NCBI GenBank assembly: GCA_041393775.1
Contig: JAWKJM010000003.1
Location: forward strand, 30,811 to 94,810
DNA from: Candidatus Nanopelagicales bacterium
Lineage (GTDB): Bacteria > Actinomycetota > Actinomycetes > S36-B12 > UBA10799
Direction: 5' to 3'
DNA length: 64,000 nucleotides
Part shown: positions 1 to 24,300 of the stretch, one piece after another
How the letters are laid out: the number at the start of each line of letters is the position of its first letter
Position numbering within the stretch: the stretch's first letter is position 1
Notes under the pieces: generated by a model
Database searches by the model: none
Told to the model about the DNA's origin: nothing
The model's input: the letters and a program-made list of their open reading frames with translations, nothing else
Program-made: the position numbers and the translations under genes

Positions 1-786
1 TTCACCGGCCGGTACCGCCTCGGCGGCGGCACGGGCGGCAACCTCGCGGCCGACCGCTTGAGCCGCTGGCTGCACCGGCCCGACGGCAGCCCCGCGCACG
101 ACAGCAGCGCGGCGCTCACGGTATGGAACCCGCTACCTGCCACGGGGGGCACCGATCCCGAGCAGGTGGCGGCGGTGCAGCAACTGGCGCCCAGCGCGTT
201 CCGCACACAGCTGCGGGCCGTGACCGCCCAGGACCACGCCGAGGCCGCCGACACGGTGTCCGGGGTGCAGCGTGCCGTCACCCGGCGGATGTGGACCGGG
301 TCGTGGTACGCGATGCGGACCATGGTGGACGCGGACGCCGGCGCGGATCCGTTCGCCGCCGTGGCCACGCTGCTGGAGACCCGCCGGATGGTGGTCACCG
401 ATGTGGAAGTGGCCCCGCCCGCGCAGGTGCCTCTGCACATCGGACTGTTCGGCTGCGTGCTGCCGGGATTCCTGCAGTCCGAAGTACGCGGGCAGATCCT
501 GGCCGCGCTCTCGGCGCACCCGCCCACCGGCTTCTTCAACCCCGACCGGTTCACATTCGGCCAGCCGCTGTATGTCAGCGACCTGGTGGCTGCCGCGATG
601 GCGGTGCCCGGCCTGACCTCGCTGGACGTGAGGGTGTTCGCGCCGCTGGGGGCCGAGGCGCAGACGGCCGCGAACCTGGCCGCCGGGCGGATCGTCACCG
701 GGCCGCGCGAGGTCCTGCGCTGTGACACCGACCCGAACAACCCCGAGGCGGGCCGGGTCGACGTGGAACTGGGAGGTGGCTCGTGA
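1..786 (+). CDS. Baseplate J/gp47-like wedge protein, C-terminal part (5-prime end outside window)
   Basis: Frame 1 is open from nt 1 (FTGRYRLGGGTGGN...), and ORF-track 58..786 is the in-frame remainder. The stop TGA 784-786 overlaps the GTG start of the next gene (GTGA). It sits directly upstream of other contractile-tail baseplate genes. Family assignment is by recall only. Confidence 0.6.
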   Translation, partial: FTGRYRLGGGTGGNLAADRLSRWLHRPDGSPAHDSSAALTVWNPLPATGGTDPEQVAAVQQLAPSAFRTQLRAVTAQDHAEAADTVSGVQRAVTRRMWTGSWYAMRTMVDADAGADPFAAVATLLETRRMVVTDVEVAPPAQVPLHIGLFGCVLPGFLQSEVRGQILAALSAHPPTGFFNPDRFTFGQPLYVSDLVAAAMAVPGLTSLDVRVFAPLGAEAQTAANLAAGRIVTGPREVLRCDTDPNNPEAGRVDVELGGGS

Positions 787-3293
787 GCGATCAGTCACCC
801 GTGGCCAACCCCGCCGGGCAGCCGGTCCTGCAGCGCCGGGTCGCCACCCACGCGGTCGCCCTGGCCCGCATGCGCGAGGACCTGGCCGCACCTGGCCACC
901 ACCCCACCGTCCGGTCCCTGGCCCACGCCCCCGCCGACCCGCCGGCCGATCCCGGCATCGCGGTTCTGGACGCCTTCGCAGTCGTGTCCGACATCGTCGC
1001 GTTCTACTCCGAACGCATCGCCACCGAAGGGTTCCTGCGCACCGCCACCCGGCTGGAGTCGGTGCGGGAACTGGCGCGGATGCTCGGCTACGAACTACGG
1101 CCGGGTGTGTCGGCGCAGACGGACCTCGTGTTCACGTGCGAGGACGCCGACGGTTCCCCCGGGTCCGTCGACGTCCCGGCCGGAACCCCCGTGCAGTCGG
1201 TGCCCGGCGACGGGGAGTTGCCGCAGACCTTCGAAACCGCCGAGCAGTTCGAGGCGCGCGCCGTGTGGAACGCACTGCCGGTGCTGGACACCCGGGCGCA
1301 GGAACTCGGGTACGGCCGGCGGCACATCTGGCTGAAGGGCCGCTCCGATGTGGTGGTGGGTGACGCCGTGCTGGTGGTCGGCGCCGAGCGGGTCGGATAC
1401 GGCGAGTGGCCGCCGGCCCAACCACGCGAACCACAGACCCTCGACGACGACGAACGCTGGGACTTCCGCACGGTCACGGCCGTCGACGCGGACGCCCTGC
1501 CCGGCTGGACCCGGTTGGATCTGGAGCGGCCCATCGGCTATCGCCGCTCACGGACGCTGACCGCCGAGCGGGACGTGACCGTGCACCGCTTCGCCAAGGC
1601 GGCCCGGCTGTTCGGCGCCAACGCCCCCGACCCCAACCTGCTTGCCGACGACGACGGCCCGCCGCCCGGCGCCTCGCTCGGGCGGCGCAAGACGTATGTG
1701 TGGGACGGCTTCGACGTCGTCAGCGCGGACGCCCCGACGGTGATCGAGGTCGACGGCGCCCACCCCGACCTGCAGCCCGGCTCCTGGGTGGTGCTGGAGC
1801 AGCCCGGCAAGACCGAGGCGTATCTGGTGGCGCGGGTGACCCCGGACGGCGCCGCGAAGTTCGCGGTGACCGGGCCGCTGACCCGGGTGCGCCTGGACCT
1901 CGCGGACGGGCTGCCGGACTTCGACCGCCGACGTGCGACCGTGCACTGCATCTCGGCCGCGCTGCCCGCCGCGGAGGAACCCGACGACTCCCCGCAGGCT
2001 GTCCGCACGCTGCGGGTGCCCGCCTGTGACCCGCCGCTGGCGGCCGGCCGGCGGGTCGTCCTGGCCGGGACCGACGCCGACACCGGGGCCGCGAGGGCGC
2101 AGGCGGCGACCATCGCATCGGTCACCGTGACCGGCGACGTCATGGAGGTGGTGCTCGACACCGGCCTGGCCGGTCGTTTCCTGCGGCAGGAGCTGATGTT
2201 GCACGCCAACGTGGTACGTGCCTCCCACGGCGAGGGCGTCGAACAGGTGCTCGGCAGCGGGGACGGCCGGGAGGCGTTCGCGACGTTCACCACCCGTCGG
2301 GCGCCACTGACCCACCTGCGCGCGATTTCCCCCGCGGGCGCCCGGGCGGAACTGACCGTACGGGTGGACGGCGTGGCCTGGGAGCAGGTCGAGAGCCTGG
2401 ACCAAGCCGGCCCGCGAGACCGGGTGTACACGCTGGCCTACGACGAGCAGGGAGCGGCCCTGATCACCCTCGGCGACGGGGTGAACGGCGCGCGGCCCGC
2501 GACCGGCACGGAGAACATCAAGGCTGCCTATCGCGTCGGCATCGGCCAGACGGGGGCGCTGCTGGCCGGGCAGTTGAGCCTACTGACCCGGCGGCCGCTG
2601 GGGATCCGGGCGGTCACCAATCTGGCGGCCACCAGCGACTGGGCGCCGCCGGAGACCCTCGAGCAGGCCCGGGTCAACGCCGGCCTGCGAGTGCGCACCC
2701 TCGACCGGGCGGTGTCGGTCGCGGACTACGCCGACTTCGCGCGCACCTACGCCGGGGTGGGGCCCGCCCGGGCCGACCTGGTGTGGGACGGCCGGTCGGA
2801 CCGGGTGGTGGTCAGTGTCCTGGGCACCGGCGCCACCCCGCCCAGCGACGGCCTGATCGCCGATCTGCACACCGCGCTGGACGGGGCCCGCGACCCCGGC
2901 AGCCGGCTGGACGTCCAGGTCGGCGTGCAGACCTGGTTCGCGGTGCGGGTGGAGGTCGCCCATGACCTCGCATACGAGCGGGACACAGTGGTGGCCGGGG
3001 TGCGGGCCGGGTTGACGGCGCGGTTCGGGCCGGCCTCGCGGGTCTTCGCCACGCCGGTCACCGCGGCTGCCGTTCTGGTGGCGGTGAAGGCGGTGCCCGG
3101 GGTACTGGCATGCACCATGCCGCGATTGCTGCCGCTGGCATCCGTGCCGCCGGAACCGCAGGTCCCGGACGTGCCGCCGGACAGCCTGGCGGTGGATCCG
3201 GCGGCGGCCCTGCCCGCCCGGTGGGACGGCCGCGTGCTGCCCGCGCAACTGCTGGCCCTGGTGGCCACGGAGATCGGGGAGATGCGGCCATGA
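783..3293 (+). CDS. Putative baseplate assembly protein (baseplate-J-like core), 836 aa
   Basis: The N-terminal block DPGIAVLDAFAVVSDIVAFYSERIATEGFLRTATRLESVRELARMLGYELRPGVSA resembles the conserved core of the putative-baseplate-assembly/baseplate-J proteins of tail-like clusters. Start and stop both overlap neighbouring genes (GTGA at 783-786, ATGA at 3290-3293). Confidence 0.7.
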   Translation: MSDQSPVANPAGQPVLQRRVATHAVALARMREDLAAPGHHPTVRSLAHAPADPPADPGIAVLDAFAVVSDIVAFYSERIATEGFLRTATRLESVRELARMLGYELRPGVSAQTDLVFTCEDADGSPGSVDVPAGTPVQSVPGDGELPQTFETAEQFEARAVWNALPVLDTRAQELGYGRRHIWLKGRSDVVVGDAVLVVGAERVGYGEWPPAQPREPQTLDDDERWDFRTVTAVDADALPGWTRLDLERPIGYRRSRTLTAERDVTVHRFAKAARLFGANAPDPNLLADDDGPPPGASLGRRKTYVWDGFDVVSADAPTVIEVDGAHPDLQPGSWVVLEQPGKTEAYLVARVTPDGAAKFAVTGPLTRVRLDLADGLPDFDRRRATVHCISAALPAAEEPDDSPQAVRTLRVPACDPPLAAGRRVVLAGTDADTGAARAQAATIASVTVTGDVMEVVLDTGLAGRFLRQELMLHANVVRASHGEGVEQVLGSGDGREAFATFTTRRAPLTHLRAISPAGARAELTVRVDGVAWEQVESLDQAGPRDRVYTLAYDEQGAALITLGDGVNGARPATGTENIKAAYRVGIGQTGALLAGQLSLLTRRPLGIRAVTNLAATSDWAPPETLEQARVNAGLRVRTLDRAVSVADYADFARTYAGVGPARADLVWDGRSDRVVVSVLGTGATPPSDGLIADLHTALDGARDPGSRLDVQVGVQTWFAVRVEVAHDLAYERDTVVAGVRAGLTARFGPASRVFATPVTAAAVLVAVKAVPGVLACTMPRLLPLASVPPEPQVPDVPPDSLAVDPAAALPARWDGRVLPAQLLALVATEIGEMRP

Positions 3294-5344
3294 CCGAACG
3301 GCTCTTCGACCTGCTGCCGGTACATGTGCGTACCCGCGACGAGCAGTCGGGCGGGTTGTTGGCCGAACTGCTGTCAGCGGTTTCGGGAGAACTCGCAGTG
3401 CTCGAGAGGGACATCGACGAGTTGTACGCGTCGTGGTTCATCGAGACCTGTCCGGACTGGGTGGTGCCGTACATCGGGGACCTGGTCGGGGTCGACGATC
3501 TGCCACCCGCGGCCACCGCCCGGGCTTACGTCGCCAACACGGTGGCCTACCGCCGGCGCAAAGGCACACTGGGCGTGATCGAACAGGTCGCCCGGGACGT
3601 CACCGGCTGGCCCGCCGTCGCTGTGGAGTCCTATCGCCTGCTGTCGGCGACCACCGCACTGAACCATGTGCGCACCGAACGGCCCGCGAGCGCACTCGTC
3701 CGCCACCCGGTCACCGCGGCCGGGCCGCTGGAACTGGTCACGACCGGGCGGGGTGCGCTCGATCCCCTGCCGCACACCGCGGATGTGCGCAGGTCGGGCC
3801 GTTACGGCATCGACAAGGTCGGCGTGTTCCTGTTCGACGACCAGGTGTACGCCACCGGGTGGTGCGCCGCCCGGGCACCGGCCGACCCCGCCGACGGCTG
3901 GACCGTGCACCCGGCCGGCTGGGACACCCCGCTGTACGCGGCGCCGGCTGCGGAGCAGACCATCGAGACCCACGCCGGGGAGCCGAACCTGCCGGTCCCG
4001 CTGCGACCGCGCCGGCTGCTGGCCCAACTTGTCGCCGCCCGCAGCGGGGAGGGCGACCCCCTGCCGATCGCGGTCAGCGTGGATGGGACCGGGGCCGACG
4101 CGCGCCGGTTGCGGGTCTGTGGCCTGGAGGACCTCGACCCGGACCTGACCGGCTGGCAGGTCATGGTCGACGCGGTCCGCGGGCGACTGTTCCCCACTTT
4201 CGACGGCAGTCCCGCCGCGCCCGCCTCGCTGGCTGTCCGGTACGCGTACGGGGCGACCGCCGACGTCGGTGCCGGCACGTACGACCGGGCTGAGGTCCAC
4301 GAGGACTGCCTCGCGGCCGACCCGTACACCGGCGACCCGGCCCGCGGTGGGCCGGGGGTGACGGCGCAGACCGCCGTGCTGTCGACCGACACCTCGGTGG
4401 CCGCCGCGCTGTCCGACGCTGAGACCGCGTGGGCCGGCAGCGATTCCCCCGCCGGCGGCACGTACGTGATCTCCATCGGCGACAGCGCCACGTATCCCGA
4501 CGACCTGGCGGTCCACATCCCGCCGGCCACCCGGCTGGTGCTTGTGGCCGCCACCTGGCCGCAACGGGAACTGGGGCCCGGCGAGGTACTGCCCCCGGTG
4601 CCGGGGGTGTACGCGCCGGTGGGCTTGCGCCCCCGCCTGGGCGGCTCGGTGACCATCACTGGCGACGGCGGGTCCAGCGTGATCCTCGACGGGCTGCTGA
4701 TCGACGGCGACCTCGAGGCGACCGGCGCTGACGTGACGATCAGCCAGTGCACCGTCACGGGGTCGGTGAAGCTGCACCGACCTCCAACGGTCAGCATCGT
4801 GCGCAGCGTCACACGTTCGGTTACCTTCGACCCGGCAGCGGCCACCCTGCTGGTCCGCGACAGCAGCATCGACGTCGCGGGGGCCGACGCGATCACCGGG
4901 GAGGGCCTGACGCTCGACCTCGACGGCGCCACGGTGCGCGGCGGGATCGCGGTCCGTGCGATGCACGCCACCAGCAGCATCCTCGACGGCCCGGTCGCCG
5001 TCGAGAACCGGCAGACCGGCTGCGTGCGGTTCAGTTTCGTGGAGCCGGGCGCCCGGGTTCCGCGGCAGTACCGCTGCGTGCCGGGACCGGACGACGACGC
5101 CGATCTGCGCCCGCTGTACCACGCGGTGGACCCCGGGTCGCCGCACTACCTGACGCTGGCCGGGCCGCCGCCGATCACCGGCGGCGGGGAGGCGGATTCC
5201 GAGATGGGCGTGCACCACCATCTCCACCGGCCGGCCCGGGTGCGGGCCGCACACCGCCTGCTCCCCGGCTTCGTGCCGGTGGGTACCGAGATCGTGTTCG
5301 CCTCGTACGTGGCGACGGGAAGGAGCGCGGGACATGCATGGTGA
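3290..5344 (+). CDS. Phage tail protein, P2 gpI-like baseplate wedge, with beta-helix-like C-terminal half, 684 aa
   Basis: ATG 3290 overlaps the upstream stop (ATGA), so the ORF-track start at 3110 is an unsupported extension. The N-terminus LFDLLPVHVRTRDE...CPDWVVPYIGDLVGV...AYRRRKGTLGVIEQV fits the gpI-like phage-tail-protein signature. The C-terminal half has short repeats such as VTISQCTVTGSV, LLVRDSSIDVAG and LDLDGATVRGG. Confidence 0.65.
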   Translation: MTERLFDLLPVHVRTRDEQSGGLLAELLSAVSGELAVLERDIDELYASWFIETCPDWVVPYIGDLVGVDDLPPAATARAYVANTVAYRRRKGTLGVIEQVARDVTGWPAVAVESYRLLSATTALNHVRTERPASALVRHPVTAAGPLELVTTGRGALDPLPHTADVRRSGRYGIDKVGVFLFDDQVYATGWCAARAPADPADGWTVHPAGWDTPLYAAPAAEQTIETHAGEPNLPVPLRPRRLLAQLVAARSGEGDPLPIAVSVDGTGADARRLRVCGLEDLDPDLTGWQVMVDAVRGRLFPTFDGSPAAPASLAVRYAYGATADVGAGTYDRAEVHEDCLAADPYTGDPARGGPGVTAQTAVLSTDTSVAAALSDAETAWAGSDSPAGGTYVISIGDSATYPDDLAVHIPPATRLVLVAATWPQRELGPGEVLPPVPGVYAPVGLRPRLGGSVTITGDGGSSVILDGLLIDGDLEATGADVTISQCTVTGSVKLHRPPTVSIVRSVTRSVTFDPAAATLLVRDSSIDVAGADAITGEGLTLDLDGATVRGGIAVRAMHATSSILDGPVAVENRQTGCVRFSFVEPGARVPRQYRCVPGPDDDADLRPLYHAVDPGSPHYLTLAGPPPITGGGEADSEMGVHHHLHRPARVRAAHRLLPGFVPVGTEIVFASYVATGRSAGHAW

Positions 5345-8228
5345 CTTCTCCCGCCGGACGTTCGACAGCGCCGACGGGTACCGCGCGGTCCTGTTCCAGC
5401 AGGGCCGGGTCATGCTCGACGCGGACTGGAACGAACAGACCGACATCACCGCCCACCACGACGAGGTCCGCACCGCCGACATCGTGGGTCCCGGCGGCGG
5501 CCCGGCGACCTCCGGCCCGGGGCCGTTCGCGATCACCGCGGCCGACGGGTCGGTGCCCGGCGCGACCGCGTGGGCCGACCTGCGGGTGGCCGGCGGCACG
5601 TACTACGTCGACGGGATCCTGTGCGAGGCCGACCCGGCCGGCCGCTGGCCGCTGACCGATCAGCCTCACCTGCCGCAGGTGGGCAGCTCCCCGGGACTGT
5701 CCGAACCTGCCGCCGACCGGGTGGCCCTGTACTTGGACGTGTGGGCGCGGCAGGTCACCGCCGAGGAGGACCCGGCGCTGCTCGAGGTCGCCCTCGGCGG
5801 GCCCGACACCACCACCCGCGCGCAGACGGTATGGCAGGTGCGCGCCGAGCCCGTGGACCCGGGCGTCACCTGCGTCGACGTGCACGACCCGGGATGGCTG
5901 CACCGCACCCCGCGCCCGATGGCCGCCGGCCTGCAGCCAGCCGGTTCCACGGCCGACCCGTGCGAGATCTCCGGCACCGGCGGCTACCAGCGCCTGTCCA
6001 ACCAGCTGTACCGCGTCCAGATCCACGACGACGGCAGCGCCGGACCGGCCACTTTCGTGTGGTCGCGGGACAACGGCAGCGTTTTCGCCGGCCTCACCGG
6101 CATCGACGACGCCACCGCGTCCACCGCCACCCTGGGCCTGGACCGGGTGGGCCGTGACGACCAGTCGTCGTTCGCCGACGGCGACCTGGTCGAGGTGACC
6201 AGCACGGACCTGGAGTTGCGCGGGCTACGGGGCTTCCTGGCGCGCGCGGGCACGCCGGTCGTGGTCGCGGACAGTGCCGGGGCGGCCGCCGCAGTGACAC
6301 TGCCGGTCGAGTGGCTGGACAGCGCCCACCGCCCGGCCGACCTGACCGCCCTCGGCCGGGCACCGATCGTGCGGCGCTGGGACGGGGGCCCGCTGCCCCT
6401 GCGGGTGGGCGCGACCGAGCTGGAAGCCGGGATCACCGTTCGCTTCCCGAACTCCGGGACACCGGCCACCGGTGACCACTGGCTCATCCCGGCGCGAACC
6501 GTGCGGATGGCCTACGGCCTGGCCCAGCAGTCCGGCACCATCGAGTGGCCGCCGGGCGGCCGGGGTCCCGACGAGCAGCGCCCGGTCGGGCCGGTGCACC
6601 ACATCGCGCCGTTGGGGGTCCTGGAACGGGCCGGGGCCGGGTGGTCCCTGGCCAGCGACTGCCGCACCCTGTTCCCCCCGCTGACCGCGATGGTCACCAT
6701 CGACCTGGTGGGCGGCGACGGGCAGGAGGCCATGCCAGGCCGGCCACTGCCCGAACCGGTGCGGGTCGTGGTCCGCAACGGCAGGCTGCCGGTCGTCGGC
6801 GCCCCGGTGCGGTTCACGAGCGCCGGCGGGCACCTGGCCGACACCGGCCTGCCCACCGCCGGCTCGCCGCCATCGGTGACGGTGACCACCGGGCCGGACG
6901 GTGTGGCCGACGTGCGGTGGTTGCTCGATCCGAACGGTTCGTCCACGCAGGCGCTGACCGTGCGGCGCCTCGACGGCAGCGGCGACCCCGTCGACGCCGC
7001 TGTGGTCGTCACCGGGCGGCTGTCCGTGGCACGGCAGGTGCAGTGGGATCCACCTCGCGGCTGCGACCGGTTCGCCGCCACAACCACAGTGCAGCAGGCG
7101 CTCGTGGGCCTGGTCACGACCCGTCAGTTGCGACTGCTCGGCGGCGACGGCCAAGAGGTCGCGGAAGCCGGCCGGTGTGTGCCGCAACCGGTGCGGGTGG
7201 TCCTGGACAGCCCGTGCGGACCTTTGGCGAAGGCCGAGGTGGTGGCCCTGGACGAGGCCGGCTTGGTGGCCGTCGCCGACGCCGGGCAGCCCACGCCGGG
7301 AACCCTGACCGGGGCCGACGTGAAGGCGGTCTTCGTCACCGGCGCTGACGGGGTGGCCGCCTTCTGGTGGCAGCCCGGTTTCGGCGGCGACGGTTCAGCG
7401 ACCCTGGACATCATGGTCGATGGCGGCGACGCCCCGATCAGGGTGACCGCGCAGCTCGACCCGCCCGGGAGCCGGCGCCCGGGCCTGCACATCACCGACC
7501 TCGGCTTCGGCACGGGCAAGCCCTTCCGCAACGACACCGACGTGCACCCCGACGAACTCGCCTCCGGGATCGTCGTCGACCTCGACGGCGAGCTCGATCC
7601 GGACTCGGTGGCCGGGAAACCCGTGGCCCGGGTGGAACTGGAGTTGCCGTGGCCGGTCCACAGCGACGGGGACGCCTGGGCGCCGGTGCCGATCGGCTAC
7701 CACAACGTGACGCTGGCCGCGGACCTGGCCGCCGAGCGCGAGCGGTTGTTGTGGACTCCGCGCGGGCGGACCGAGGGCTGGCTGCGCGACGGTCTCTGGT
7801 CGGCGCTCGCCGACGCCCACTGGGACGAGCCGCTGCTCGGCCGGTTCATCGTCGAGGGCTGGGCGCTCATCTCGGCCAAGGACCGTGACCTGCATGTCAA
7901 CGGCCACGCCTTGACCCGAATGCGCGGCACCCGCACCCTGTTCGCCCTCCCCACCGACGACGAGATCACCGGCGGGGTGTTCACCCAGTGGTTCCGGCTG
8001 ACCCGCGCGCCTTTGCGGCCGCAGCGCAAGCCGGTCCCCGACCTCGTCCGGCGCACCGGCGCCGTCGCCGAACGCCTGCTGGCCGCCGAGGGCCTGCCGC
8101 TGGCGGGCACCGTGGTGGAGCGCGACGACCGGATCCGCAAGGGCCTGGTCCTGCGCACCGAACCTGCTGCGGGCACGGTCGTCGACGAAGGCACCCCGAT
8201 CACACTGGTCGTGTCCGCAGGGCGGTGA
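5334..8228 (+). CDS. DUF6519-type tail-fibre/distal baseplate protein with two Ig-like (Big_1-type) modules and a C-terminal PASTA domain, 964 aa
   Basis: A GGGAAGGAG RBS at 5317-5325 lies 8 nt before ATG 5334. The N-terminus is MHGDFSRRTFDSADGYRAVLFQQGRVMLDADWNEQ. Two modules start GGDGQEAMPGRPLPEPVRVVV and GGDGQEVAEAGRCVPQPVRVVL. The last ~65 aa, VPDLVRRTGAVAERLLAAEGLPLAGTVVERDDRIRKGLVLRTEPAAGTVVDEGTPITLVVSAG, fit the PASTA consensus. Confidence 0.7.
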   Translation: MHGDFSRRTFDSADGYRAVLFQQGRVMLDADWNEQTDITAHHDEVRTADIVGPGGGPATSGPGPFAITAADGSVPGATAWADLRVAGGTYYVDGILCEADPAGRWPLTDQPHLPQVGSSPGLSEPAADRVALYLDVWARQVTAEEDPALLEVALGGPDTTTRAQTVWQVRAEPVDPGVTCVDVHDPGWLHRTPRPMAAGLQPAGSTADPCEISGTGGYQRLSNQLYRVQIHDDGSAGPATFVWSRDNGSVFAGLTGIDDATASTATLGLDRVGRDDQSSFADGDLVEVTSTDLELRGLRGFLARAGTPVVVADSAGAAAAVTLPVEWLDSAHRPADLTALGRAPIVRRWDGGPLPLRVGATELEAGITVRFPNSGTPATGDHWLIPARTVRMAYGLAQQSGTIEWPPGGRGPDEQRPVGPVHHIAPLGVLERAGAGWSLASDCRTLFPPLTAMVTIDLVGGDGQEAMPGRPLPEPVRVVVRNGRLPVVGAPVRFTSAGGHLADTGLPTAGSPPSVTVTTGPDGVADVRWLLDPNGSSTQALTVRRLDGSGDPVDAAVVVTGRLSVARQVQWDPPRGCDRFAATTTVQQALVGLVTTRQLRLLGGDGQEVAEAGRCVPQPVRVVLDSPCGPLAKAEVVALDEAGLVAVADAGQPTPGTLTGADVKAVFVTGADGVAAFWWQPGFGGDGSATLDIMVDGGDAPIRVTAQLDPPGSRRPGLHITDLGFGTGKPFRNDTDVHPDELASGIVVDLDGELDPDSVAGKPVARVELELPWPVHSDGDAWAPVPIGYHNVTLAADLAAERERLLWTPRGRTEGWLRDGLWSALADAHWDEPLLGRFIVEGWALISAKDRDLHVNGHALTRMRGTRTLFALPTDDEITGGVFTQWFRLTRAPLRPQRKPVPDLVRRTGAVAERLLAAEGLPLAGTVVERDDRIRKGLVLRTEPAAGTVVDEGTPITLVVSAGR

Positions 8229-8234
8229 CACACG

Positions 8235-8261
8235 GTGGTTCGGCCGCCTCCCACGAACCGC
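8235..8261. terminator. Weak hairpin in the 43-nt gap between the two convergent eCIS modules (possible bidirectional terminator)
   Basis: GTGGTTCG (8235-8242) can pair with CGAACCGC (8254-8261), including one G:U pair, around an 11-nt loop. There is no T-tract. Confidence 0.3.
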
Positions 8262-8271
8262 TGCAACGTCC

Positions 8272-9945
8272 CTACAACCGGAAGATCCAGTTCACCAGGC
8301 TCGCCCCGGCCAGCCCGTCGACCGGGGATTGCTGCCCGGCAGTCAACCGGTAGGCGGTCGTGATCTGCGCCAGCAACTGTGTCTCCAGCGCCGTCCGGCC
8401 CCGGTTCAGTAGGGCCGCGACAGTGGCTGCCGGCACCGGCGGGCTGCCCGCCGCGGCCAAGCCGGCGACCAGCGGCTCGAACCTGGTGCGGTCCGACAGC
8501 GTCTCCACGAGCATCCCCCACAGCGCCAAGGCGCCGATCCGCCCGGCCAGGGTGCTCAAGATCGCCGGACGGTCGGTGGTCGAGGTCGCGGCCAGTTCAG
8601 TGAGCAGGTACCGGCCCTGCGCCCGGTACGCCCGCGCCTCGAGTTGCCCGGTGTCGGTGAAGGTCACCGTCGCACCCGCGGCCGCTCGGTCGTCGTGCGC
8701 GTGGGTGAGTTCGTGGACGACGTTGGAGCGGTCGCTGAGGTCGTAGATGTCCAGGGTCGTCTGCACGTAGATGGTGTCCCCCTTCGCGCCACTGGCCTGC
8801 GCGACGGTGGCGTAGAAGGCGACCATCGTCGCGGCACCCGGCAGAGAGGCGAACGCCGACGGGATCAACGCGTCCACCTTGATCCGGCCGGCGAGCACCT
8901 CCCCGGCCTCCGGCATCCCCGCGGCCTGCGCGATCGTGTAGACCATCGCGGCCAGTACGCGGTCGCCCGGCGAGCTGTCCGAGGCGGCGGCGAGCATCGC
9001 GGTCAGCACGTCGGGCACCGACACCCGGTGGTCCGCCGCCCAGTCGATGACATCCTCCGCGGTGTCCCTGTAACTGCCGGCCCGGCTGACGATCTCCCGC
9101 CGGGCAGCGGCGTCCGCGGTCGACAGCTCGGCGATCACCTGCCCCACTTCCAGGCTCGCCAGGGCCGCACGCGCCCGGGCCATGGGCGCAGTCACCGTTG
9201 CGGGAACGGTCTCCCGGCCGAGGTCCTCGACGGTCACCATGTTCGGCGTGATCGTAGCCAGCGGAAACGTGACAGACGCGGTGGCGTTGAGCGGGGTGGC
9301 CGCCAGGGTCGTGGCGTTGGCGGCCACCGTCAGCCCGGCCATGAACATCCGCTCGTGGTCGTCCACAGTCCCATGGGAGTTCAGCGCATCGGCTCGCAGT
9401 GCCCGCAACCCGCGGGTGTGAAGCACGCCGCCGCCGAGCAGGTTCTTGGCCAGTTGCATGAAGGAAAGCCGCAACTCGACGCCTGCCCGGAACTCGAAAC
9501 TCACCGGGTTGCCGAGGGCATCGTTCACGACCGCCCGGTGGACGAGCGCCGGCGCGACAGTCAAGGCCGGCGTCATGCCCGAGGCAGCGGCGACCGCCTG
9601 CACCTCAGCCGCCTGTCCCGGCTGCGACAGGCCCACCGGCTGCCTCGGGACCGACTGCACCACGTGTGCCGCCTCGTGAACCAGCAACTGCCGGCCCGGC
9701 ACAGACTGAGGGTCGTACCGGCCGGCGCCGAAGACGATGTGCCGACCCACCGTGAACGCCTGCGCCCGCAGCCGCTGCGCGGCACGTGCAGCCTGCGGAT
9801 CGGCGTGCACGGCCACATCGCCGAAGTCATGGCTGAAGCGACGGCCGAGGTCCGCGGCGACGTCGGTGGGCAGCCGCTGCCCCGCGTCGCGGGTGGCGGC
9901 CACCGCCTCGGCGGTCAGCGCACGCTGGGCCTCGTGCTCCCTCAT
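8272..9945 (-). CDS. DUF4157-domain protein with zincin-like HExxH motifs; putative eCIS cargo/effector, 557 aa
   Basis: I chose the start ATG at 9945 because it forms an ATGA overlap with the stop of the upstream ATPase gene; the longer ORF-track start at 10161 is Arg/Gly-rich junk. The block FSHDFGDVAVHADPQAARAAQRLRAQAFTVGRHIVFGAGRYDP...LLVHEAAHVVQ is the DUF4157 signature with HExxH. A second HExxH (VVHELTHAHDD) lies at about 8701-8718. Confidence 0.8.
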   Translation of the reverse strand: MREHEAQRALTAEAVAATRDAGQRLPTDVAADLGRRFSHDFGDVAVHADPQAARAAQRLRAQAFTVGRHIVFGAGRYDPQSVPGRQLLVHEAAHVVQSVPRQPVGLSQPGQAAEVQAVAAASGMTPALTVAPALVHRAVVNDALGNPVSFEFRAGVELRLSFMQLAKNLLGGGVLHTRGLRALRADALNSHGTVDDHERMFMAGLTVAANATTLAATPLNATASVTFPLATITPNMVTVEDLGRETVPATVTAPMARARAALASLEVGQVIAELSTADAAARREIVSRAGSYRDTAEDVIDWAADHRVSVPDVLTAMLAAASDSSPGDRVLAAMVYTIAQAAGMPEAGEVLAGRIKVDALIPSAFASLPGAATMVAFYATVAQASGAKGDTIYVQTTLDIYDLSDRSNVVHELTHAHDDRAAAGATVTFTDTGQLEARAYRAQGRYLLTELAATSTTDRPAILSTLAGRIGALALWGMLVETLSDRTRFEPLVAGLAAAGSPPVPAATVAALLNRGRTALETQLLAQITTAYRLTAGQQSPVDGLAGASLVNWIFRL

Positions 9946-11783
9946 GGCGCACCCCGCCTCGGGACCCGCCCGGACTTGGCCAGCTCCCAGCGCGCCGCGG
10001 TCCGCACGTGCTCCTCGCCGACCCCGCCACCGTCCTCGGCCGCCAGGTAGGCGGCGGTGAGCGCGACCGCGGCGATCCCTCCGCCCGGCAGATCGATGTC
10101 GGCCAACTGGCGCGGCTGCACACCGTCGGTCGGCGCATCGGCCGGGAAGACTCCCGCCCACAACCGTTCCCGCAGCCCCGGATCCGGGTACGGGAACGTG
10201 ACGACGGTGCGCAGTCGACGCAGGAACGCCGGGTCCAGCCCCGACCGCGCGTTGGTGGTGAGAATGGCCAGGCCACGGAACTGTTCCATGCGCTGCAGCA
10301 AATAGCCGACCTCGATGTTGGCGTAGCGGTCGTGACTGTCGCGCACCTCGGTGCGCTTGCCGAACAAGGCGTCCGCCTCGTCGAACAGCAACAGTGCGCC
10401 GCCGTTCTCAGCTGCGTCGAACACCCGCGCGAGGTTCTTCTCGGTCTCCCCGAGCCACTTGCTGACGACTCGGCTGAGGTCCACCTGCAGCAGGTCGAGA
10501 TCCAGGTCCCGGGCGATCACCTCGGCGGCCAGCGACTTGCCGGTGCCGCTCGGACCGGTGAACAGCGCGGTGGAGCCGAGCCCGCGCGGCCCTTGTTGCG
10601 CGAACCCCCAGTCGTCGAGGACGGTGCTGCGGTGCCGCACGGACGACGTCAGTGCCCGCAACTGCTCCATCTGCGCCTCCGGCAGTACGAGGTCGTCCCA
10701 TGTGGCCCGCGGGGTGATCAGGGTGGCCAGTCCGCCGGGATGGGAGCCCACCCGTGCCCGGCAGGCGGCCCACAGCGCCGCGCCGTCCGCGACCTCCCCG
10801 GCGATCTCCTCGATCTCGGGCAGGGACACGTCGAAGACGGCGGCTGCCACGTCCGAGTCCGCTGCCGGCACCGTGCATCCGGCCCGGCGCAGGGCCGAGG
10901 AGAGCACCTCGCGTCGCTCGGCCACCTCGAGTCGGTCGATGCGCACCTCGACGGCGTCGGGCACCGCCTGCACCGACAGCAGGGCGACCGGGGCATGCAA
11001 GCCACCCAGTGCGGTGATCCCGTCGGCCGGGCCACCGGTCAGGTCCACCAGCCAGGCGGCCCCGCCGAGGACTGTCTCGCGTTCCATCCGACGCAAGAAG
11101 TCCCACCGTGCCAGCGGATCGGCCGGCACGTCACCGGCATCCAGTGCGTAGCCGGTGAGACCCACCCGCTCGGCGGCACCGGCGAACACCGCGTACACGT
11201 TGCCCCGCTGCATGCCGTTCAGCACCACCGGCCGGTCGGCACGCCATGCCGCGACCACCTCCCCGACCGCGGCCGACAGCGTCGCGGGCAGCCAACCGGC
11301 CGCGGGTACTGGCCGGCCAACCGCCGCGAGCCGCACGTCGAGATGCCCGGTGCCGGCGAGGTGGTTCAGCACCCGCTCGTCGACGGTCAGCGGGCTGCGG
11401 ACTGCGGACACGGGGTCGAGCAACTCCACGAGCCCCCAGTGCCGCAAGGGGCCCGGCGGCGTCACCGCGCTCCAGTGGGCGCCGGGCAGCACCGACATCG
11501 CACCCGCGAAAGTGATCCGGTCCCCGGCGCCGAGGGTGGCGATGTCCGCGACGGACTCGCCCACCAGATCGGGCCCGGCCGCCAGCAGCAGCACGGACCG
11601 CTCGAATCCGGTGAGCCCGAACCCGTCGGCGATCTCTCCCAGGCTGCTGCGGCCGTCGAGCAGTTCCCGCGCCTGCGTCAGGTTCTGGGCCTGCTCGTCC
11701 CCGGACTCCCCGCGCACCAACGCCCGCAGCCAGTCGAGTTCGGCTGCCACCGCATCCCGGTTGCGCAACGGTCGGGCTGTCAC
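9942..11783 (-). CDS. AAA+ ATPase of contractile injection systems (Afp15/Cis15-like), 613 aa
   Basis: Walker A is FTGPSGTGKSLAAEV and Walker B is ALLLFDEADALFGKR. The GTG start overlaps the upstream stop (GTGA, 11780-11783). It sits between the DUF4255 and DUF4157 genes, as in eCIS loci. Confidence 0.85.
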   Translation of the reverse strand: MTARPLRNRDAVAAELDWLRALVRGESGDEQAQNLTQARELLDGRSSLGEIADGFGLTGFERSVLLLAAGPDLVGESVADIATLGAGDRITFAGAMSVLPGAHWSAVTPPGPLRHWGLVELLDPVSAVRSPLTVDERVLNHLAGTGHLDVRLAAVGRPVPAAGWLPATLSAAVGEVVAAWRADRPVVLNGMQRGNVYAVFAGAAERVGLTGYALDAGDVPADPLARWDFLRRMERETVLGGAAWLVDLTGGPADGITALGGLHAPVALLSVQAVPDAVEVRIDRLEVAERREVLSSALRRAGCTVPAADSDVAAAVFDVSLPEIEEIAGEVADGAALWAACRARVGSHPGGLATLITPRATWDDLVLPEAQMEQLRALTSSVRHRSTVLDDWGFAQQGPRGLGSTALFTGPSGTGKSLAAEVIARDLDLDLLQVDLSRVVSKWLGETEKNLARVFDAAENGGALLLFDEADALFGKRTEVRDSHDRYANIEVGYLLQRMEQFRGLAILTTNARSGLDPAFLRRLRTVVTFPYPDPGLRERLWAGVFPADAPTDGVQPRQLADIDLPGGGIAAVALTAAYLAAEDGGGVGEEHVRTAARWELAKSGRVPRRGAP

Positions 11784-13012
11784 GGCAGGCTCAATCGCGG
11801 CTCGGAGTACACCTCGCCGTCGAGTTCCGGCAGGCTGTCTGCGCCGTCGACGGTCACGCGTATCAGCCAGTCCCCGTCGGGGATGTCATCACGGCGCAGC
11901 TCCACGGCCGGGGACGGGGCCGCATCCGGGGGTAGCACGTCCAGGCCGAAGCGCAACGACTGCGGCTCCCCGGGGGTCAACCGGGTCAACCGCACTTCCG
12001 CGCGCTGACCCGGGTACAGCGCAGGGACGACCGCCAGCGATACCACGGTGGCCGACACGGCGTCCACTGCGACCGTGGGCCGCACCAGCACCGGGACGCT
12101 GTTGGAACGCGCGGTCACCCGGGTGACGCCGTCAGTGGTGGCACTGTGCACGACCTGCAGCGCGTGGATCCCGGCAGGCACTACCGCCGGCACCACCACT
12201 CGCAGGCGATCGGGTCCGGTGGCGACCGGCGTCAGCGACTCCGCACCGATCCGCACCACCGTGGCGGTGCTCAGCAAGCCACTGCCGACCACGTGCAACT
12301 CGGTGCCGGTCAGCACGGGTCCGTGCGCTGGATCGGTGTCCACCGAGCGAATGCGTGGTGGGGCGATCGGCGCCACCCCGACGCTGCGCTGCCGCACCGG
12401 TAGCACGACCCGAGGGCTGACGTCCGCCTCCAGCAGCACGACGGTCGCCGTGTAGGCCAGCGACAGCAGGTACGGTGCACCCAGCATCCCCCACAGCCGT
12501 GACATCTCCTCGAGCGTCACCGCCGCCGGCGCCAGTTTGACCAGTTCCACCTGATCGGCGAGATCCGCGTCGGCCAGGAAAGCGGTGGCGATGTCCCCGT
12601 CGTACTGGTCGAGCGCCGCTGCCACCAGGTCGCGGGTGAGCACCGGGGTCATCGCCAGCGCCAGCACGGCCCGGCCGAGCAGGCGCTGGGCGTCCAGGTG
12701 GGTGTCGTCGCCGAAGCAGGAGATCAGGTAGTGCAGGTCCAGCGCCGCTACCGGCCTGTGCGACAGCGACCCGTCGGCGCGGCGGGTCGGTAGATCGGTC
12801 AGGTTCCACGCGTGGTTGGGCGTGACCTGGTGCAAGTAGACGTTGATCCCCTTCGCAGGCTCGCCGAGATCGTCGTGCGCGGCGACCTGGTCCGGGCGCA
12901 TGGTCGTGACCGCGGCCGAACCCACCGGGCCGGGCTGCGGTCCGCCGAGCGCCTGGCTGAGCACGAACCGGATGGTCGAGGTCACCGCCGCGATCGCCAG
13001 CGTGTTGCTCAT
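11780..13012 (-). CDS. DUF4255 (Pvc16/Afp16-like tail terminator/cap) protein with Ig/TIG-like C-terminal extension, 410 aa
   Basis: The N-terminus MSNTLAIAAVTSTIRFVLSQAL...INVYLHQVTPN is typical of the Pvc16 N-terminal domain. The C-terminal part, PRIRSVDTDPAHGPVLTGTELHVVGSGL...VVRIG, looks like a TIG/IPT fold. There is an ATGA overlap at 13009-13012. Confidence 0.8.
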   Translation of the reverse strand: MSNTLAIAAVTSTIRFVLSQALGGPQPGPVGSAAVTTMRPDQVAAHDDLGEPAKGINVYLHQVTPNHAWNLTDLPTRRADGSLSHRPVAALDLHYLISCFGDDTHLDAQRLLGRAVLALAMTPVLTRDLVAAALDQYDGDIATAFLADADLADQVELVKLAPAAVTLEEMSRLWGMLGAPYLLSLAYTATVVLLEADVSPRVVLPVRQRSVGVAPIAPPRIRSVDTDPAHGPVLTGTELHVVGSGLLSTATVVRIGAESLTPVATGPDRLRVVVPAVVPAGIHALQVVHSATTDGVTRVTARSNSVPVLVRPTVAVDAVSATVVSLAVVPALYPGQRAEVRLTRLTPGEPQSLRFGLDVLPPDAAPSPAVELRRDDIPDGDWLIRVTVDGADSLPELDGEVYSEPRLSLP

Positions 13013-13824
13013 CGCCGGTCCTCCCGCCGTGCCGCGAGGTACTCGCCGAGGTCGGGGCCGGGCTTCGTCCGCGGTTCAGACGCCGCAGCCGGTGGCCGCA
13101 CCTCCACCCGTGCGATATGCACGTTCACCTGTGGTCTGCCATCAACCACGAGCTGCTCCACCACCGGCTCCGCCGCAATCCGCACCACGTCGGCGTCGGC
13201 ACGCCCCGAGGGTGCGCCGACCGCCGTGGGCCCCACCACGCGCTCGTCGACGAGTGCGGGGACGACGTGCTCGGCCAGCAACCCGGGCGGGACTGCGTCA
13301 ACCTCGGGAGCCACGGGCTCGGGCTCCGGCGGCCGAGTGCTGGTGGGAACCGGCTCCGCTGCGGGAACCGGCTGTGGTCCCGGCTGCACCGCCCGCGCAA
13401 CGGCAGGCATAGGCCGGACCACAGGCGTCACCGGCGCGGGCGCCCCCCGTGCGGGCGCCCGGGTCGCGGGGGACTGGGTCGAGGAGGCACGCTCGGCCGC
13501 CGGTTCGACCGGCGGCACGGGATCGGCCACTGGTTCCGCCGATGGCACGGCCTGCACGATTGGGCCCACCGGGGGCTCCGGCTGAGCAGCCGGGTTCCGC
13601 GGCGGGCCGGGCTCGGCAACCGGGCCCCGAGTCCTGCCGGGTGGGGCGACCGGCGCTGCCACCACTTCGGGGGCGACTCGCTGTGTGGCGGCCGGTTGCA
13701 CTGGACCGATCGCCGTCTCCGGCGCCGCCACAGCCTCCGATTCGAACACCGACCGCGGTCGCATGGACACCGTCAGCGCCGTCCCCGAGGCGAGGGCGGC
13801 CAGCCGGTCCAGGGCTCTGCTCAT
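13009..13824 (-). CDS. Pro/Ala-rich hypothetical protein; possible tape-measure/length-determinant analogue, 271 aa
   Basis: The internal start ATG at 13824 forms an ATGA overlap with the stop of the upstream gene; the rest of ORF-track 13009..14949 overlaps real genes in other frames. The centre is low complexity (PEPPVGP, PVPPVEP, PEPEPVAPE). The ordered C-terminus reads VVEQLVVDGRPQVNVHIARVEVRP. The role is inferred from position only. Confidence 0.55.
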   Translation of the reverse strand: MSRALDRLAALASGTALTVSMRPRSVFESEAVAAPETAIGPVQPAATQRVAPEVVAAPVAPPGRTRGPVAEPGPPRNPAAQPEPPVGPIVQAVPSAEPVADPVPPVEPAAERASSTQSPATRAPARGAPAPVTPVVRPMPAVARAVQPGPQPVPAAEPVPTSTRPPEPEPVAPEVDAVPPGLLAEHVVPALVDERVVGPTAVGAPSGRADADVVRIAAEPVVEQLVVDGRPQVNVHIARVEVRPPAAASEPRTKPGPDLGEYLAARREDRR

Positions 13825-14489
13825 CGAGCCGCCAGTTGCAGATAGGCGCTGCGCCGTGCCGGCGACAGGGCGAGGATCTCCGGCTCGGTCCAGCCGTACG
13901 CGGCGGCCAGTGCCGCGACGTCCTGCAACAACCCCGGTGCGGTCGCCGCCACCTGCTGCCACAACAACCCGGCCGCATCGACCACCCCGGTGACCTGCTC
14001 GCCGCAGTCCGGGCACTGTGCACGCACCTCTGGCACGGCATCCCCGGCGAGTTCTTCGAAGGCCTGTTCCACCAATTCCAGATCCGCGGCGGTCAGCTCC
14101 TGCCAGCCGTCGACGCACCGCTCCAGCAGCACCTTCCGGGCATCGGGGCGACCGCCCGCGGCCAGCAGGTCCCGCACCGTGGGGCAGCGCACCGACACCT
14201 CCCCGAAAGACACCGGGCACTGCACGGATGCCACACGGGCCCCTACCATCTGGCCCAGCGCCAGCTGCAGGTCCAGCAGGGTCCCGCACCGCTGGCAGGT
14301 GAGCACCACGTCGACCAAGTCCGCCAATGACTGCGCCGCCACCACAGCCACCTCGGCGACCGGGCGGTCGACCCACGGGCTGCCGTCCAACGCCGTGAGC
14401 ACGGCCGCCCCCCGCACCGGCTCGGGCGCACGTTCCCCGGCCTCCCAGGCCGCGAGCAGCGTCGCTGGATCCTGCAGGCCGGGTCGCAT
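13821..14489 (-). CDS. Conserved-position eCIS hypothetical protein with split zinc-ribbon-like Cys pairs, 222 aa
   Basis: The ORF starts 3 nt after the tube-gene stop. It has CQRC ... C ... C ... C ... CPDC cysteines (CQRCGTLLDL..., AQCPDCGEQV). Third-position GC is high. I recognise no family with certainty. Confidence 0.6.
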   Translation of the reverse strand: MRPGLQDPATLLAAWEAGERAPEPVRGAAVLTALDGSPWVDRPVAEVAVVAAQSLADLVDVVLTCQRCGTLLDLQLALGQMVGARVASVQCPVSFGEVSVRCPTVRDLLAAGGRPDARKVLLERCVDGWQELTAADLELVEQAFEELAGDAVPEVRAQCPDCGEQVTGVVDAAGLLWQQVAATAPGLLQDVAALAAAYGWTEPEILALSPARRSAYLQLAAR

Positions 14490-14492
14490 GGG

Positions 14493-15014
14493 CTACGGCT
14501 CCACGAACGACGGTTCCGTCGGTTCGGTCACGGAGATGTCGCGCTCCCAGCCCTCGTTCTCCAACTTGATGCTCTGGATGGCCACCGCGTTGGCGTTCGC
14601 ATCGAGCTCCGGCAGCGCCTCGAACTCCGACACCCAGCACCGGTAGACGTGGTAGGCGATCACGAGTTGGCCGGCCTCGTTGTACATCTCCAGGATGATG
14701 TCCTTGCGGAAGTCCTTCAGCGATGTCTCGGCTCCGAGCCCGGAACCGTAGTTCCAGACTTTGTTCGCCCACCGCTCGAACTCCACGTCGTGGGTGACAC
14801 CGCGGTGCAGCATGATCGCCTCGAACTCCGAGCGCCCGGGCGACTTGCGACTGCTGCTCGGGTCGCCGCCACTGCGGTGCTTGACGACTTCGGTGGTGCG
14901 TTTGAGCGCCCCGACCTTGCTGACGCCAGCCACGTAGCGGCCGTCCCACTTGACCCGGAACTTGAAGTTCTTGTACGGGTCGAAGCGATTGGCATTGACC
15001 GTGAACTCAGCCAT
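14493..15014 (-). CDS. Contractile-tail tube protein (T4 gp19-like, Afp1/Cis1-type), 173 aa
   Basis: MAEFTVNANRFDPYKNFKFRVKWDGRYVAGVSKVGALKRTTEVVKHRSGGDPS is the classic conserved phage-tail-region tube signature. It lies immediately downstream of the sheath gene. Confidence 0.9.
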   Translation of the reverse strand: MAEFTVNANRFDPYKNFKFRVKWDGRYVAGVSKVGALKRTTEVVKHRSGGDPSSSRKSPGRSEFEAIMLHRGVTHDVEFERWANKVWNYGSGLGAETSLKDFRKDIILEMYNEAGQLVIAYHVYRCWVSEFEALPELDANANAVAIQSIKLENEGWERDISVTEPTEPSFVEP

Positions 15015-15029
15015 GGGTTCCTCGCTCTC

Positions 15030-16580: not shown

Positions 16581-16731
16581 GTTCGCTCCTCAGCACGGTT
16601 GCCCCGACCCTGCCGAGCCGGCGTCACAGTCGCGTCACCGACGGGTCACGCGGGCCCAGGCGCCTCACAACCTCTGTCGATCCTCGACCAGCCACTGCCG
16701 TGGCGTTCAGGCGGGGGCGGAGACCGCTCGC

Positions 16732-16799
16732 GTTAGAGAACGTGCACGCGGTTAGAGAACACACGCGTGGCTTCTCTAACCTCGTGCACGTTCTCTAAC
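16732..16799. promoter_or_regulatory. 68-bp near-perfect palindrome with four GTTAGAGAA boxes upstream of the sheath operon
   Basis: The outer 17-bp arms GTTAGAGAACGTGCACG (16732-16748) and CGTGCACGTTCTCTAAC (16783-16799) are perfect inverted repeats. The inner arms are GGTTAGAGAAC (16750-16760) and CTTCTCTAACC (16771-16781), centred on ACGCGT. By my hand alignment, 31 of 34 positions match. The element is AT-richer than its surroundings and lies 152-219 nt upstream of the sheath start. Confidence 0.6.
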
Positions 16800-16925
16800 C
16801 TCGCGGCCAACTCCCGCGAGCCGTAGTCAGACTGGACGCATCGCCGGCCGGGATCGCCGACCCAGTTCTCCGTGCAGCGCTCAGCCGCCGCGATCGGGCC
16901 CGCCGGCTTCTGCCGCACGCCCGCT

Positions 16926-18086: not shown

Positions 18087-18188
18087 CTTGGGACCTCCCG
18101 TGTGCACGCCCCTTCAGGGTAGGACTGACACGTGCGACGATGCGCGGTTCGCGTCGCCGGGCCCAGTGCTGCCGAGCGACGAGTGCGG

Positions 18189-19775: not shown

Positions 19776-19904
19776 GAGCACTCCCTCCGTTGTGCAGGAG
19801 TTTAGGAGGTCGGTCAACCCGCCAGAGTTGGTCGCGCAACGACCGGTGCCCGCCCCGAGGGTGCTTCGCGGTGACACGAGACGGCTTCAGCAACAGCGCC
19901 GGCC

Positions 19905-19959
19905 GGGGGACTTTGGGCAGATATGGTCACCAGGTGACCTGAAATGACCAAAGTCCCCC
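19905..19959. repeat. Palindromic intergenic repeat, family P copy 1 (GGGGGACTTTGG ... CCAAAGTCCCCC)
   Basis: The outer 12-bp stem spans 19905-19916 and 19948-19959. The inner perfect palindrome GGTCACCAGGTGACC is at 19925-19939. Related copies are at 42213-42263 and 49670-49717. Confidence 0.8.
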
Positions 19960-20047
19960 AGGGGCCTGCCGTGACCCCTTCGGACGGTGGCCAGGCCGCA
20001 CGCACGTCGCTACGCTTGGGCAATCCGAAGCCGCGGGAGTGCGCCGT

Positions 20048-23565: not shown

Positions 23566-23568
23566 ACG

Positions 23569-24288: not shown

Positions 24289-24300
24289 CGTGGTTGCCGG

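Follow-up and report, generated by a model that had tools for sequence, protein, structure and literature searches.

Five N-terminal domains that anchor tail fibres to the baseplate have been defined for extracellular contractile injection systems (eCISs), and DUF6519 is one of them, named eBAP5 (PMC12923769, Nachmias et al. 2026, Nat Commun). In that study eBAP5 correlates with Actinobacteriota, about 90% of eCIS fibre genes are encoded behind Tail_P2_I and Afp11/12, and eBAP5 fibres, whose roles are predicted, combine macroglobulin-like shafts with beta-helix, lectin or haemagglutinin ends (PMC12923769). The actinobacterial contractile injection systems (CISs) characterised so far, those of Streptomyces coelicolor, S. 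venezuelae and S. lividans, are all cytoplasmic and fibreless (PMC10066040, PMC12237407, PMC13277306). In S. coelicolor the gene behind the baseplate genes encodes CisA, a membrane adaptor needed for firing (PMC12237407). Here we analyse a 64,000-nucleotide stretch of DNA from an uncultured actinobacterium, a Candidatus Nanopelagicales bacterium (contig JAWKJM010000003.1, positions 30,811 to 94,810 of the forward strand), referred to below as the window, in which a CIS locus carries a fibre gene whose product begins with DUF6519 and ends with a PASTA domain. At a probability of roughly one half, we read this protein as a baseplate-attached fibre whose PASTA tip docks on Gram-positive wall material outside the cell.

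The gene and the parts of its product are listed here in positions of the window.

5334-8228, + strand: fibre/receptor-binding protein gene, 964 residues, recognised by third-position GC content, Pfam, a full-length AlphaFold2 (AF2) model and 3106 homologues
5334-6689, + strand: DUF6519/eBAP5 baseplate-anchor region (residues 1 to about 452; PF20129), the best-conserved part of the family
6693-7028, + strand: beta-sandwich module 1, of macroglobulin/immunoglobulin (Ig)-like type (residues 454-565), with a GGDGQ...PVRVV motif
7125-7463, + strand: beta-sandwich module 2 (residues 598-710), homologous to module 1
7485-8000, + strand: penultimate distal domain (residues 718-889), beta-rich with a helix at 811-827; the final domain of PASTA-less homologues of about 900 residues
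residues 890-897, + strand: short Pro/Arg-rich linker directly before the PASTA domain
8025-8216, + strand: C-terminal PASTA domain (residues 898-961; Pfam 901-961, that is 8034-8216), recognised by Pfam, AF2, Foldseek and a profile search against the PDB

The open reading frame is a real gene, and its DUF6519 region, paired modules and PASTA domain are all present well beyond chance. GC content at third codon positions is 0.92, a strong coding signature typical for a genome of 70-74% GC, and a Shine-Dalgarno sequence, GGAAGGAG, is located 7 nt upstream of the ATG. An overlap of 11 nt between the start of the gene and the stop of the upstream Tail_P2_I-like gene points to translational coupling. 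The full-length AF2 model has a predicted local distance difference test score (pLDDT) of 90 and arranges the parts in the order helix, beta-rich DUF6519 region, two beta-sandwiches, distal domain, Pro/Arg linker and PASTA.

Sequence and modelling both identify the C-terminus of the fibre as an authentic kinase-type PASTA domain. The initial annotation, made from the letters of the window, had placed a PASTA domain at about 8031-8225; a PF03793 search recovered it with 38.4 bits in the full protein (gathering cut-off 23.2 bits, E 1.2e-9) and with 44 bits on the isolated last 80 residues, and the NCBIfam model PknB_PASTA_kin gave a local match over the same stretch. It is the single PASTA domain in the window. 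We built a model of the last 78 residues from an alignment of 43 tips. This AF2 model (pLDDT 89.4) has the topology beta-alpha-beta-beta-beta-beta and displays the beta-alpha-beta3 fold of about 65-70 residues that can be superposed on solved PASTA repeats. The 30 best PDB matches that Foldseek returned for it are without exception PASTA domains. The structural comparison with PknB proposed in the initial annotation came out as anticipated: Mycobacterium tuberculosis PknB leads the ranking (5e12, 3ouv and 5e10; E 1e-5 to 1e-4, root-mean-square deviation 0.9-2.4 Å, 32-35% identity), with a deviation of 0.9 Å and a TM-score of 0.79 for 5e10. Staphylococcus aureus PrkC and pneumococcal StkP come next, and the PASTA domains of PBP1, PBP2x and PonA2 later.

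A profile of the tip family, searched against PDB sequences, matched only PASTA kinases and PonA2 (E 1e-38 to 4e-8). Among the repeats of M. tuberculosis PknB it scored 51 bits with PASTA1, 45 with PASTA3, 32 with PASTA2 and 11 with PASTA4. The tip follows the pattern VPDV-G-T--A---L---GL...P-AGT-V--G--V-L-VS-G, which is common to kinase PASTAs, and the near-invariant residues of the 78-residue tip (T22, A26, G34, P58, S75 and G77) are structural core positions only. In fold, with a deviation of 0.9-2.0 Å at 31-35% identity, and in sequence pattern, the tip is thus like the PASTA repeats of PknB (M. tuberculosis), PrkC/Stk1 (S. aureus, Bacillus subtilis) and StkP (Streptococcus pneumoniae). 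Its setting is different. Kinase sensors bear three to four PASTA copies outside the membrane on a kinase or a penicillin-binding protein (PBP), whereas the fibre has one, rarely two, at the C-terminal end of a structural protein that is made in the cytoplasm and has no signal peptide. Pfam detected neither a kinase nor a transpeptidase domain in the fibre; the carrier is a signal-less CIS fibre and not an extracytoplasmic PBP or Ser/Thr kinase.

We considered and ruled out a chance resemblance to PASTA in a protein that is rich in Ala, Gly and Val and encoded by high-GC DNA. A single-sequence phmmer search against PDB sequences was weak (E 0.74), as a chance match would be; against it stand a Pfam score 15-20 bits over the gathering cut-off, a confident tip model whose best 30 PDB matches are all PASTA, a family-profile match to PknB at E 1e-38 and the retention of PASTA in 82 homologues.

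An exhaustive search of representative sequences with the tip profile returned 47,510 representatives at E<=1e-3, and the top of the ranking is occupied mostly by proteins with 6-35 tandem PASTA repeats. Among these representatives, a group of proteins of 1700-3400 residues (P0121-P0135) has 14-35 tandem repeats, versus 1-5 in kinases and PBPs.

The other parts of the protein place it in the published eBAP5 class. The initial annotation had taken it for a CIS fibre-class protein with a DUF6519-type N-terminus, and both points were borne out: PF20129 is found with E 7e-56 (190 bits, Pfam), DUF6519 corresponds to eBAP5, and the gene is located downstream of Tail_P2_I. In the model, the anchor region has a long N-terminal helix (residues 29-51) and is beta-rich up to about residue 450. 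The two GGDGQ...PVRVV modules named in the same annotation as Ig-like are indeed homologous (38% identity, E 5e-11), and both fold as beta-sandwiches in the full-length model, where they span residues 454-563 and 598-708. Pfam searches on the isolated modules gave no significant Ig family, so that the Ig-like label derives from the fold, through Foldseek matches of the macroglobulin/Ig type. With the whole model, Foldseek matches in the PDB were complement C3/C5, CD109, alpha-2-macroglobulin, adhesins and baseplate chains of phage phi812, at TM-scores of about 0.1; by this model comparison they represent generic macroglobulin/Ig-chain similarity and point to no specific relative. A search of BFVD with the whole model similarly gave phage Big-1 tail proteins at a low TM-score (about 0.1). 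The macroglobulin-like beta-sandwich shaft expected of an eBAP5 fibre is thus found behind the anchor. Nothing significant was found in Pfam for the penultimate domain.

In its DUF6519 anchor, its place downstream of Tail_P2_I and baseplate J, its macroglobulin-like shaft and its enrichment in Actinobacteriota, the protein resembles the eBAP5 fibres of PMC12923769; unlike the beta-helix, lectin and haemagglutinin ends described there, its own end is PASTA. We infer attachment to the baseplate from this literature model, and the oligomeric state of the fibre is likewise presumptive.

The PASTA end is conserved across the fibre family. Architectures were counted in the best 120 of the 3106 homologues. 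Precomputed annotations list PF03793 and PF20129 together in 70 of them, and a hidden Markov model (HMM) of the tip family detects PASTA in 82, as one copy in 78 proteins and as two in 4. In 78 of the 82 carriers the domain lies within 10 residues of the C-terminus. A survey of DUF6519 C-termini, recommended by the initial annotation, revealed alternative ends or none in the other 38 homologues. Twenty-four of these stop right behind the penultimate domain; the short PASTA-less forms (856-945 residues) terminate with that domain, and PASTA-less forms of 1032-1208 residues, mostly from Streptomyces and Kitasatospora, have different C-termini. The existence of tipless forms of about 900 residues and of Streptomyces forms with other ends indicates that the fibre C-terminus is modular. 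Mean identity to the query decreases from the N- to the C-terminus (59, 59, 52, 45 and 39%), which is the usual tail-fibre pattern, as in phage and tailocin fibres.

All taxon-labelled PASTA carriers, whether homologues or loci, belong to Actinomycetota. Named carriers among the best 120 include Micromonospora, Kineosporiaceae, Cellulomonas, Tessaracoccus, Georgenia, Blastococcus, Intrasporangium, Humibacillus, Cellulosimicrobium, Propioniciclava and Serinicoccus. When GTDB species genomes were scanned, the DUF6519 N-domain turned up in many bacterial phyla and in archaea, and the PASTA tip solely in Actinomycetota loci (L001-L009). CIS-like DUF6519 loci outside this set (L013-L082) come from many phyla and include the archaea Methanoperedenaceae, Nitrosopumilus and Methanothrix; the family HMM found no PASTA end in them. 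One homologue of 1642 residues (P0049) unites Tail_P2_I, DUF6519 and PASTA in one polypeptide, which hints at a physical contact between fibre and Tail_P2_I, the alternative being an artefact of a 1-nt indel. The fibre had no match among 50,697 phage records searched by tblastn or among PHROGs.

The architecture itself is already annotated in public databases: NCBI, UniRef and JGI label many homologues as 'PASTA domain-containing protein' or 'DUF6519/PASTA domain'. PASTA does not appear in the main text of PMC12923769, and its supplementary hmmscan file has at least 14 mentions of PASTA, among them rows for DUF6519-bearing proteins, undiscussed there. Our literature search found no paper joining 'PASTA domain' and 'contractile injection', or PASTA and tail-like particles. 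Thus the suggestion of the initial annotation that a PASTA-tipped fibre had not been described holds for discussion in the papers searched and fails for database names and for that supplementary file. What is new here is the explicit reading of PASTA as a receptor tip and its breadth across actinobacteria.

The fibre gene belongs to a CIS locus with the following genes.

1-786, + strand: 3' part of a Baseplate_J-like gene (PF04865, E 2e-5), cut by the window edge
783-3293, + strand: baseplate wedge subunit, 836 residues (PHROG 219 and 6); its position matches that in relatives L001 and L002
3290-5344, + strand: Tail_P2_I-like baseplate protein, 684 residues (PF09684, E 9e-5), the predicted attachment partner of the fibre
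8272-9945, - strand: eCIS_core (DUF4157) protein (PF13699, E 4e-26), a candidate effector or effector adaptor
9942-11783, - strand: AAA+ ATPase, Afp15/Cis15-like (PF00004, PF22977)
11780-13012, - strand: Pvc16_N cap/tail terminator with a TIG domain (PF14065, E 2e-40)
14493-15014, - strand: tail tube, gp19-like (PF06841, E 2e-42)
15030-16580, - strand: contractile sheath (PF04984, PF17482), with Streptomyces CIS sheaths as the closest solved relatives

On the + strand the order is Baseplate_J, wedge, Tail_P2_I and fibre, the locus position expected for eBAP5. The fibre is the final gene of the + strand baseplate operon and converges with the - strand eCIS_core gene, in agreement with its initial designation as the last gene of the baseplate module. 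Two relatives, L001 (Micromonospora sp., protein P0005, from a contig of a sequencing run) and L002 (Humibacillus xanthopallidus), have the same layout, with extra upstream Phage_base_V and gp25 genes where the window is cut. Taking the eCIS core set as sheath, tube, gp25, baseplate J, spike, cap, AAA ATPase and DUF4157, the whole set is accounted for by the window genes together with the upstream Phage_base_V and gp25 genes of these relatives.

The closest solved sheath and the actinobacterial host are shared with the CISs of S. coelicolor and S. venezuelae (PMC10066040, PMC12237407). The window sheath matches the Streptomyces CIS sheaths 8bky/9gtp over its full length (E 7e-75) and 8bl4/9gts (E 3e-72). 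An AAA ATPase, a Pvc16-like cap and DUF4157 proteins are common to both, and in both the gene behind the baseplate genes is the candidate for targeting or triggering. PDB sequence searches, which included the S. coelicolor CIS entries, gave no match for the wedge, Tail_P2_I and cap proteins of the window; together with the Streptomyces-like sheath, this marks a related but distinct lineage. Unlike CIS-Sc, which is fibreless and has the transmembrane protein CisA behind its baseplate genes, the window encodes a soluble 964-residue fibre there; neither Streptomyces hallmark was found at the locus, and no search for CisA was made elsewhere in the genome.

The eCIS_core protein contains two HExxH motifs, HEAAH in its DUF4157 part and HELTH near its C-terminus, and its remainder has no Pfam match. 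Adjoining the sheath gene, a 393-residue protein (16926-18107, - strand) has an N-terminal zinc ribbon, a single transmembrane segment at residues 66-88 and, outside the cytoplasm, a long helical stretch. This protein might be a membrane partner of the CIS; the equivalent position in L001 lacks a gene of this kind. Between it and the first of two CHAT-domain (caspase-like protease) genes lies a beta-propeller protein of the Vgb_lyase/NHL type (18189-19877, - strand, E 1e-121) with an N-terminal hydrophobic segment. The CHAT proteins (20039-22090 and 24289-26001, + strand) are encoded a few kb past the sheath gene, and a DUF7379/PGAP1-like alpha/beta-hydrolase (22090-23565, + strand) sits between them. 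The genes at 20039-26001 might form a module for cell death or defence, or encode cargo associated with the CIS. GC content is 0.72-0.745 across 1-14000 (baseplate, fibre, ATPase) versus 0.68-0.70 across 14001-24000 (tube, sheath and beyond), so the CIS cluster is compositionally uneven. The rest of the window holds ordinary metabolic genes.

Several known systems bear on what the PASTA tip may do. PASTA kinases bind muropeptides or meso-diaminopimelic acid lipid II (PMC6428115, PMC5786024), and for lipid II binding by PknB, PASTA4 and the PASTA3-4 linker have been implicated (PMC6428115). In Anabaena tCIS, an eBAP4 'crown' at the fibre position, structurally related to eBAP5, anchors the CIS inside the producer (cited in PMC12923769, PMC12237407), so that a fibre-like protein acting within the cell has a precedent; that anchor uses a transmembrane helix, which the window fibre does not have. 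The locus can also be compared with R-type tailocins that kill Gram-positive bacteria, such as diffocin of Clostridioides difficile: both are contractile particles whose baseplate receptor-binding protein would need to recognise a Gram-positive envelope. Receptor-binding proteins of diffocins recognise S-layer protein and are not known to recognise peptidoglycan, and the fibre is unrelated to them in sequence (no phage or PHROG match).

In the reading we favour, the DUF6519/eBAP5 N-terminus would dock on Tail_P2_I and baseplate-wedge proteins, the two macroglobulin/Ig-like beta-sandwiches and the distal domain would form the shaft, and one kinase-type PASTA on a short Pro/Arg linker would constitute the extreme tip. 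The tip would most likely recognise wall material bearing stem peptides, such as uncross-linked peptidoglycan, muropeptides or lipid II. After release from the producer, the particle would dock on Gram-positive, probably actinobacterial, envelopes, where engagement of the fibre would set off contraction of the sheath, and the DUF4157-linked payload encoded nearby would be delivered. Recognition of stem-peptide wall material is the most economical inference, given that the tip is terminal and optional, is present twice in some proteins, diverges more than any other part of the fibre and, where taxa are labelled, is confined to Actinomycetota.

A number of points weigh against extracellular docking on the wall. 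Peptidoglycan is ubiquitous and would be a poor determinant of specificity, and a generic binder would stick to producer debris too. Some PASTA domains, e.g. that of PonA2, are not known to bind muropeptides, and by sequence comparison the tip resembles PASTA1 and PASTA3 of PknB, not the ligand-linked PASTA4 or its linker. No signal peptide or transmembrane segment is predicted in the fibre protein, and no lysis cassette or wall hydrolase was recognised in the cluster of the window, L001 or L002. Finally, the characterised actinobacterial CISs are all cytoplasmic, and the sheath of the window is, in sequence, closest to these.

A less likely alternative is that the PASTA tip is real and has a ligand or role other than peptidoglycan binding. 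As a generic small end module, it would be a structural cap, make protein-protein contacts or bind another envelope component (teichoic acid, teichuronic acid or a surface protein, for example), with the penultimate domain as the main receptor binder. Closest homologues without PASTA, 38 of 120, with 24 of them ending right behind that domain, are in line with this possibility, as are the better fit of the profile to the scaffold-type repeats 1 and 3 than to the terminal, ligand-linked repeat 4 of PknB, and the confinement of near-invariance to structural core positions. However, PASTA is retained at the extreme end across dozens of genera and at times duplicated, its taxon-labelled carriers all come from the phylum in which PASTA sensors are native, and kinase-type PASTA is the class with demonstrated muropeptide or lipid II binding; these observations argue against this alternative. 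The same taxonomic confinement is compatible with a further idea, which takes up the mention of the producer's own wall in the initial annotation: released particles would be held by their tips on the wall of the producer, be it at the surface of hyphae or cells or on sacculi, and would select no foreign target. A generic peptidoglycan binder may well meet the producer wall first, yet baseplate fibres holding on to it would aim the spike at the producer, giving self- or kin-targeting and no outward-facing weapon, and we consider such retention improbable.

It also seems unlikely that the system is intracellular like the Streptomyces CISs, with PASTA tips that bind wall precursors (inner-leaflet lipid II or UDP-MurNAc-pentapeptide) and either dock the particle where the wall is being made or respond to precursors that accumulate under wall stress, the outcome being firing and cell death. 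The fibre would then act as a soluble counterpart of the membrane adaptor CisA; a little less likely again is the narrower version in which a cytoplasmic PASTA precursor sensor docks the CIS where the producer builds its wall and fires it upon disturbed wall synthesis. The lack of a signal peptide and transmembrane segment fits an intracellular role, and so do the similarity of the sheath to those of cytoplasmic Streptomyces CISs and the position of the fibre gene where cisA sits in S. coelicolor. Nisin, which binds lipid II, has been reported to trigger CIS-mediated death. Peptides of CisA, which is required for firing, were found in particles from nisin-stressed S. coelicolor (PMC12237407). 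On the other hand, the wedge, Tail_P2_I and cap proteins, having no sequence match to S. coelicolor CIS structures, speak for a different lineage, and the fibreless Streptomyces systems contrast with the full modular fibre seen here, which diverges from N- to C-terminus as fibres do. Many carriers belong to unicellular genera (Cellulomonas, Georgenia, Tessaracoccus). To our knowledge, PASTA domains are otherwise extracytoplasmic. Docking of a PASTA-tipped fibre on external Gram-positive wall material is the reading we prefer.

Against the cytoplasmic and fibreless precedents from actinobacteria, the fibre bears on the question of whether any actinobacterial CIS attacks other cells, and what is recognised on them. 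It represents a widespread fibre subfamily whose terminal domain serves Gram-positive bacteria elsewhere as a sensor of peptidoglycan or lipid II. Should precursor sensing hold instead, CIS-mediated death in many actinobacteria other than Streptomyces would have a direct link to peptidoglycan stress. Binding of wall material would make the tip the first candidate eCIS receptor module directed at the Gram-positive wall as such, and a possible handle to retarget engineered injection systems to Gram-positive bacteria.

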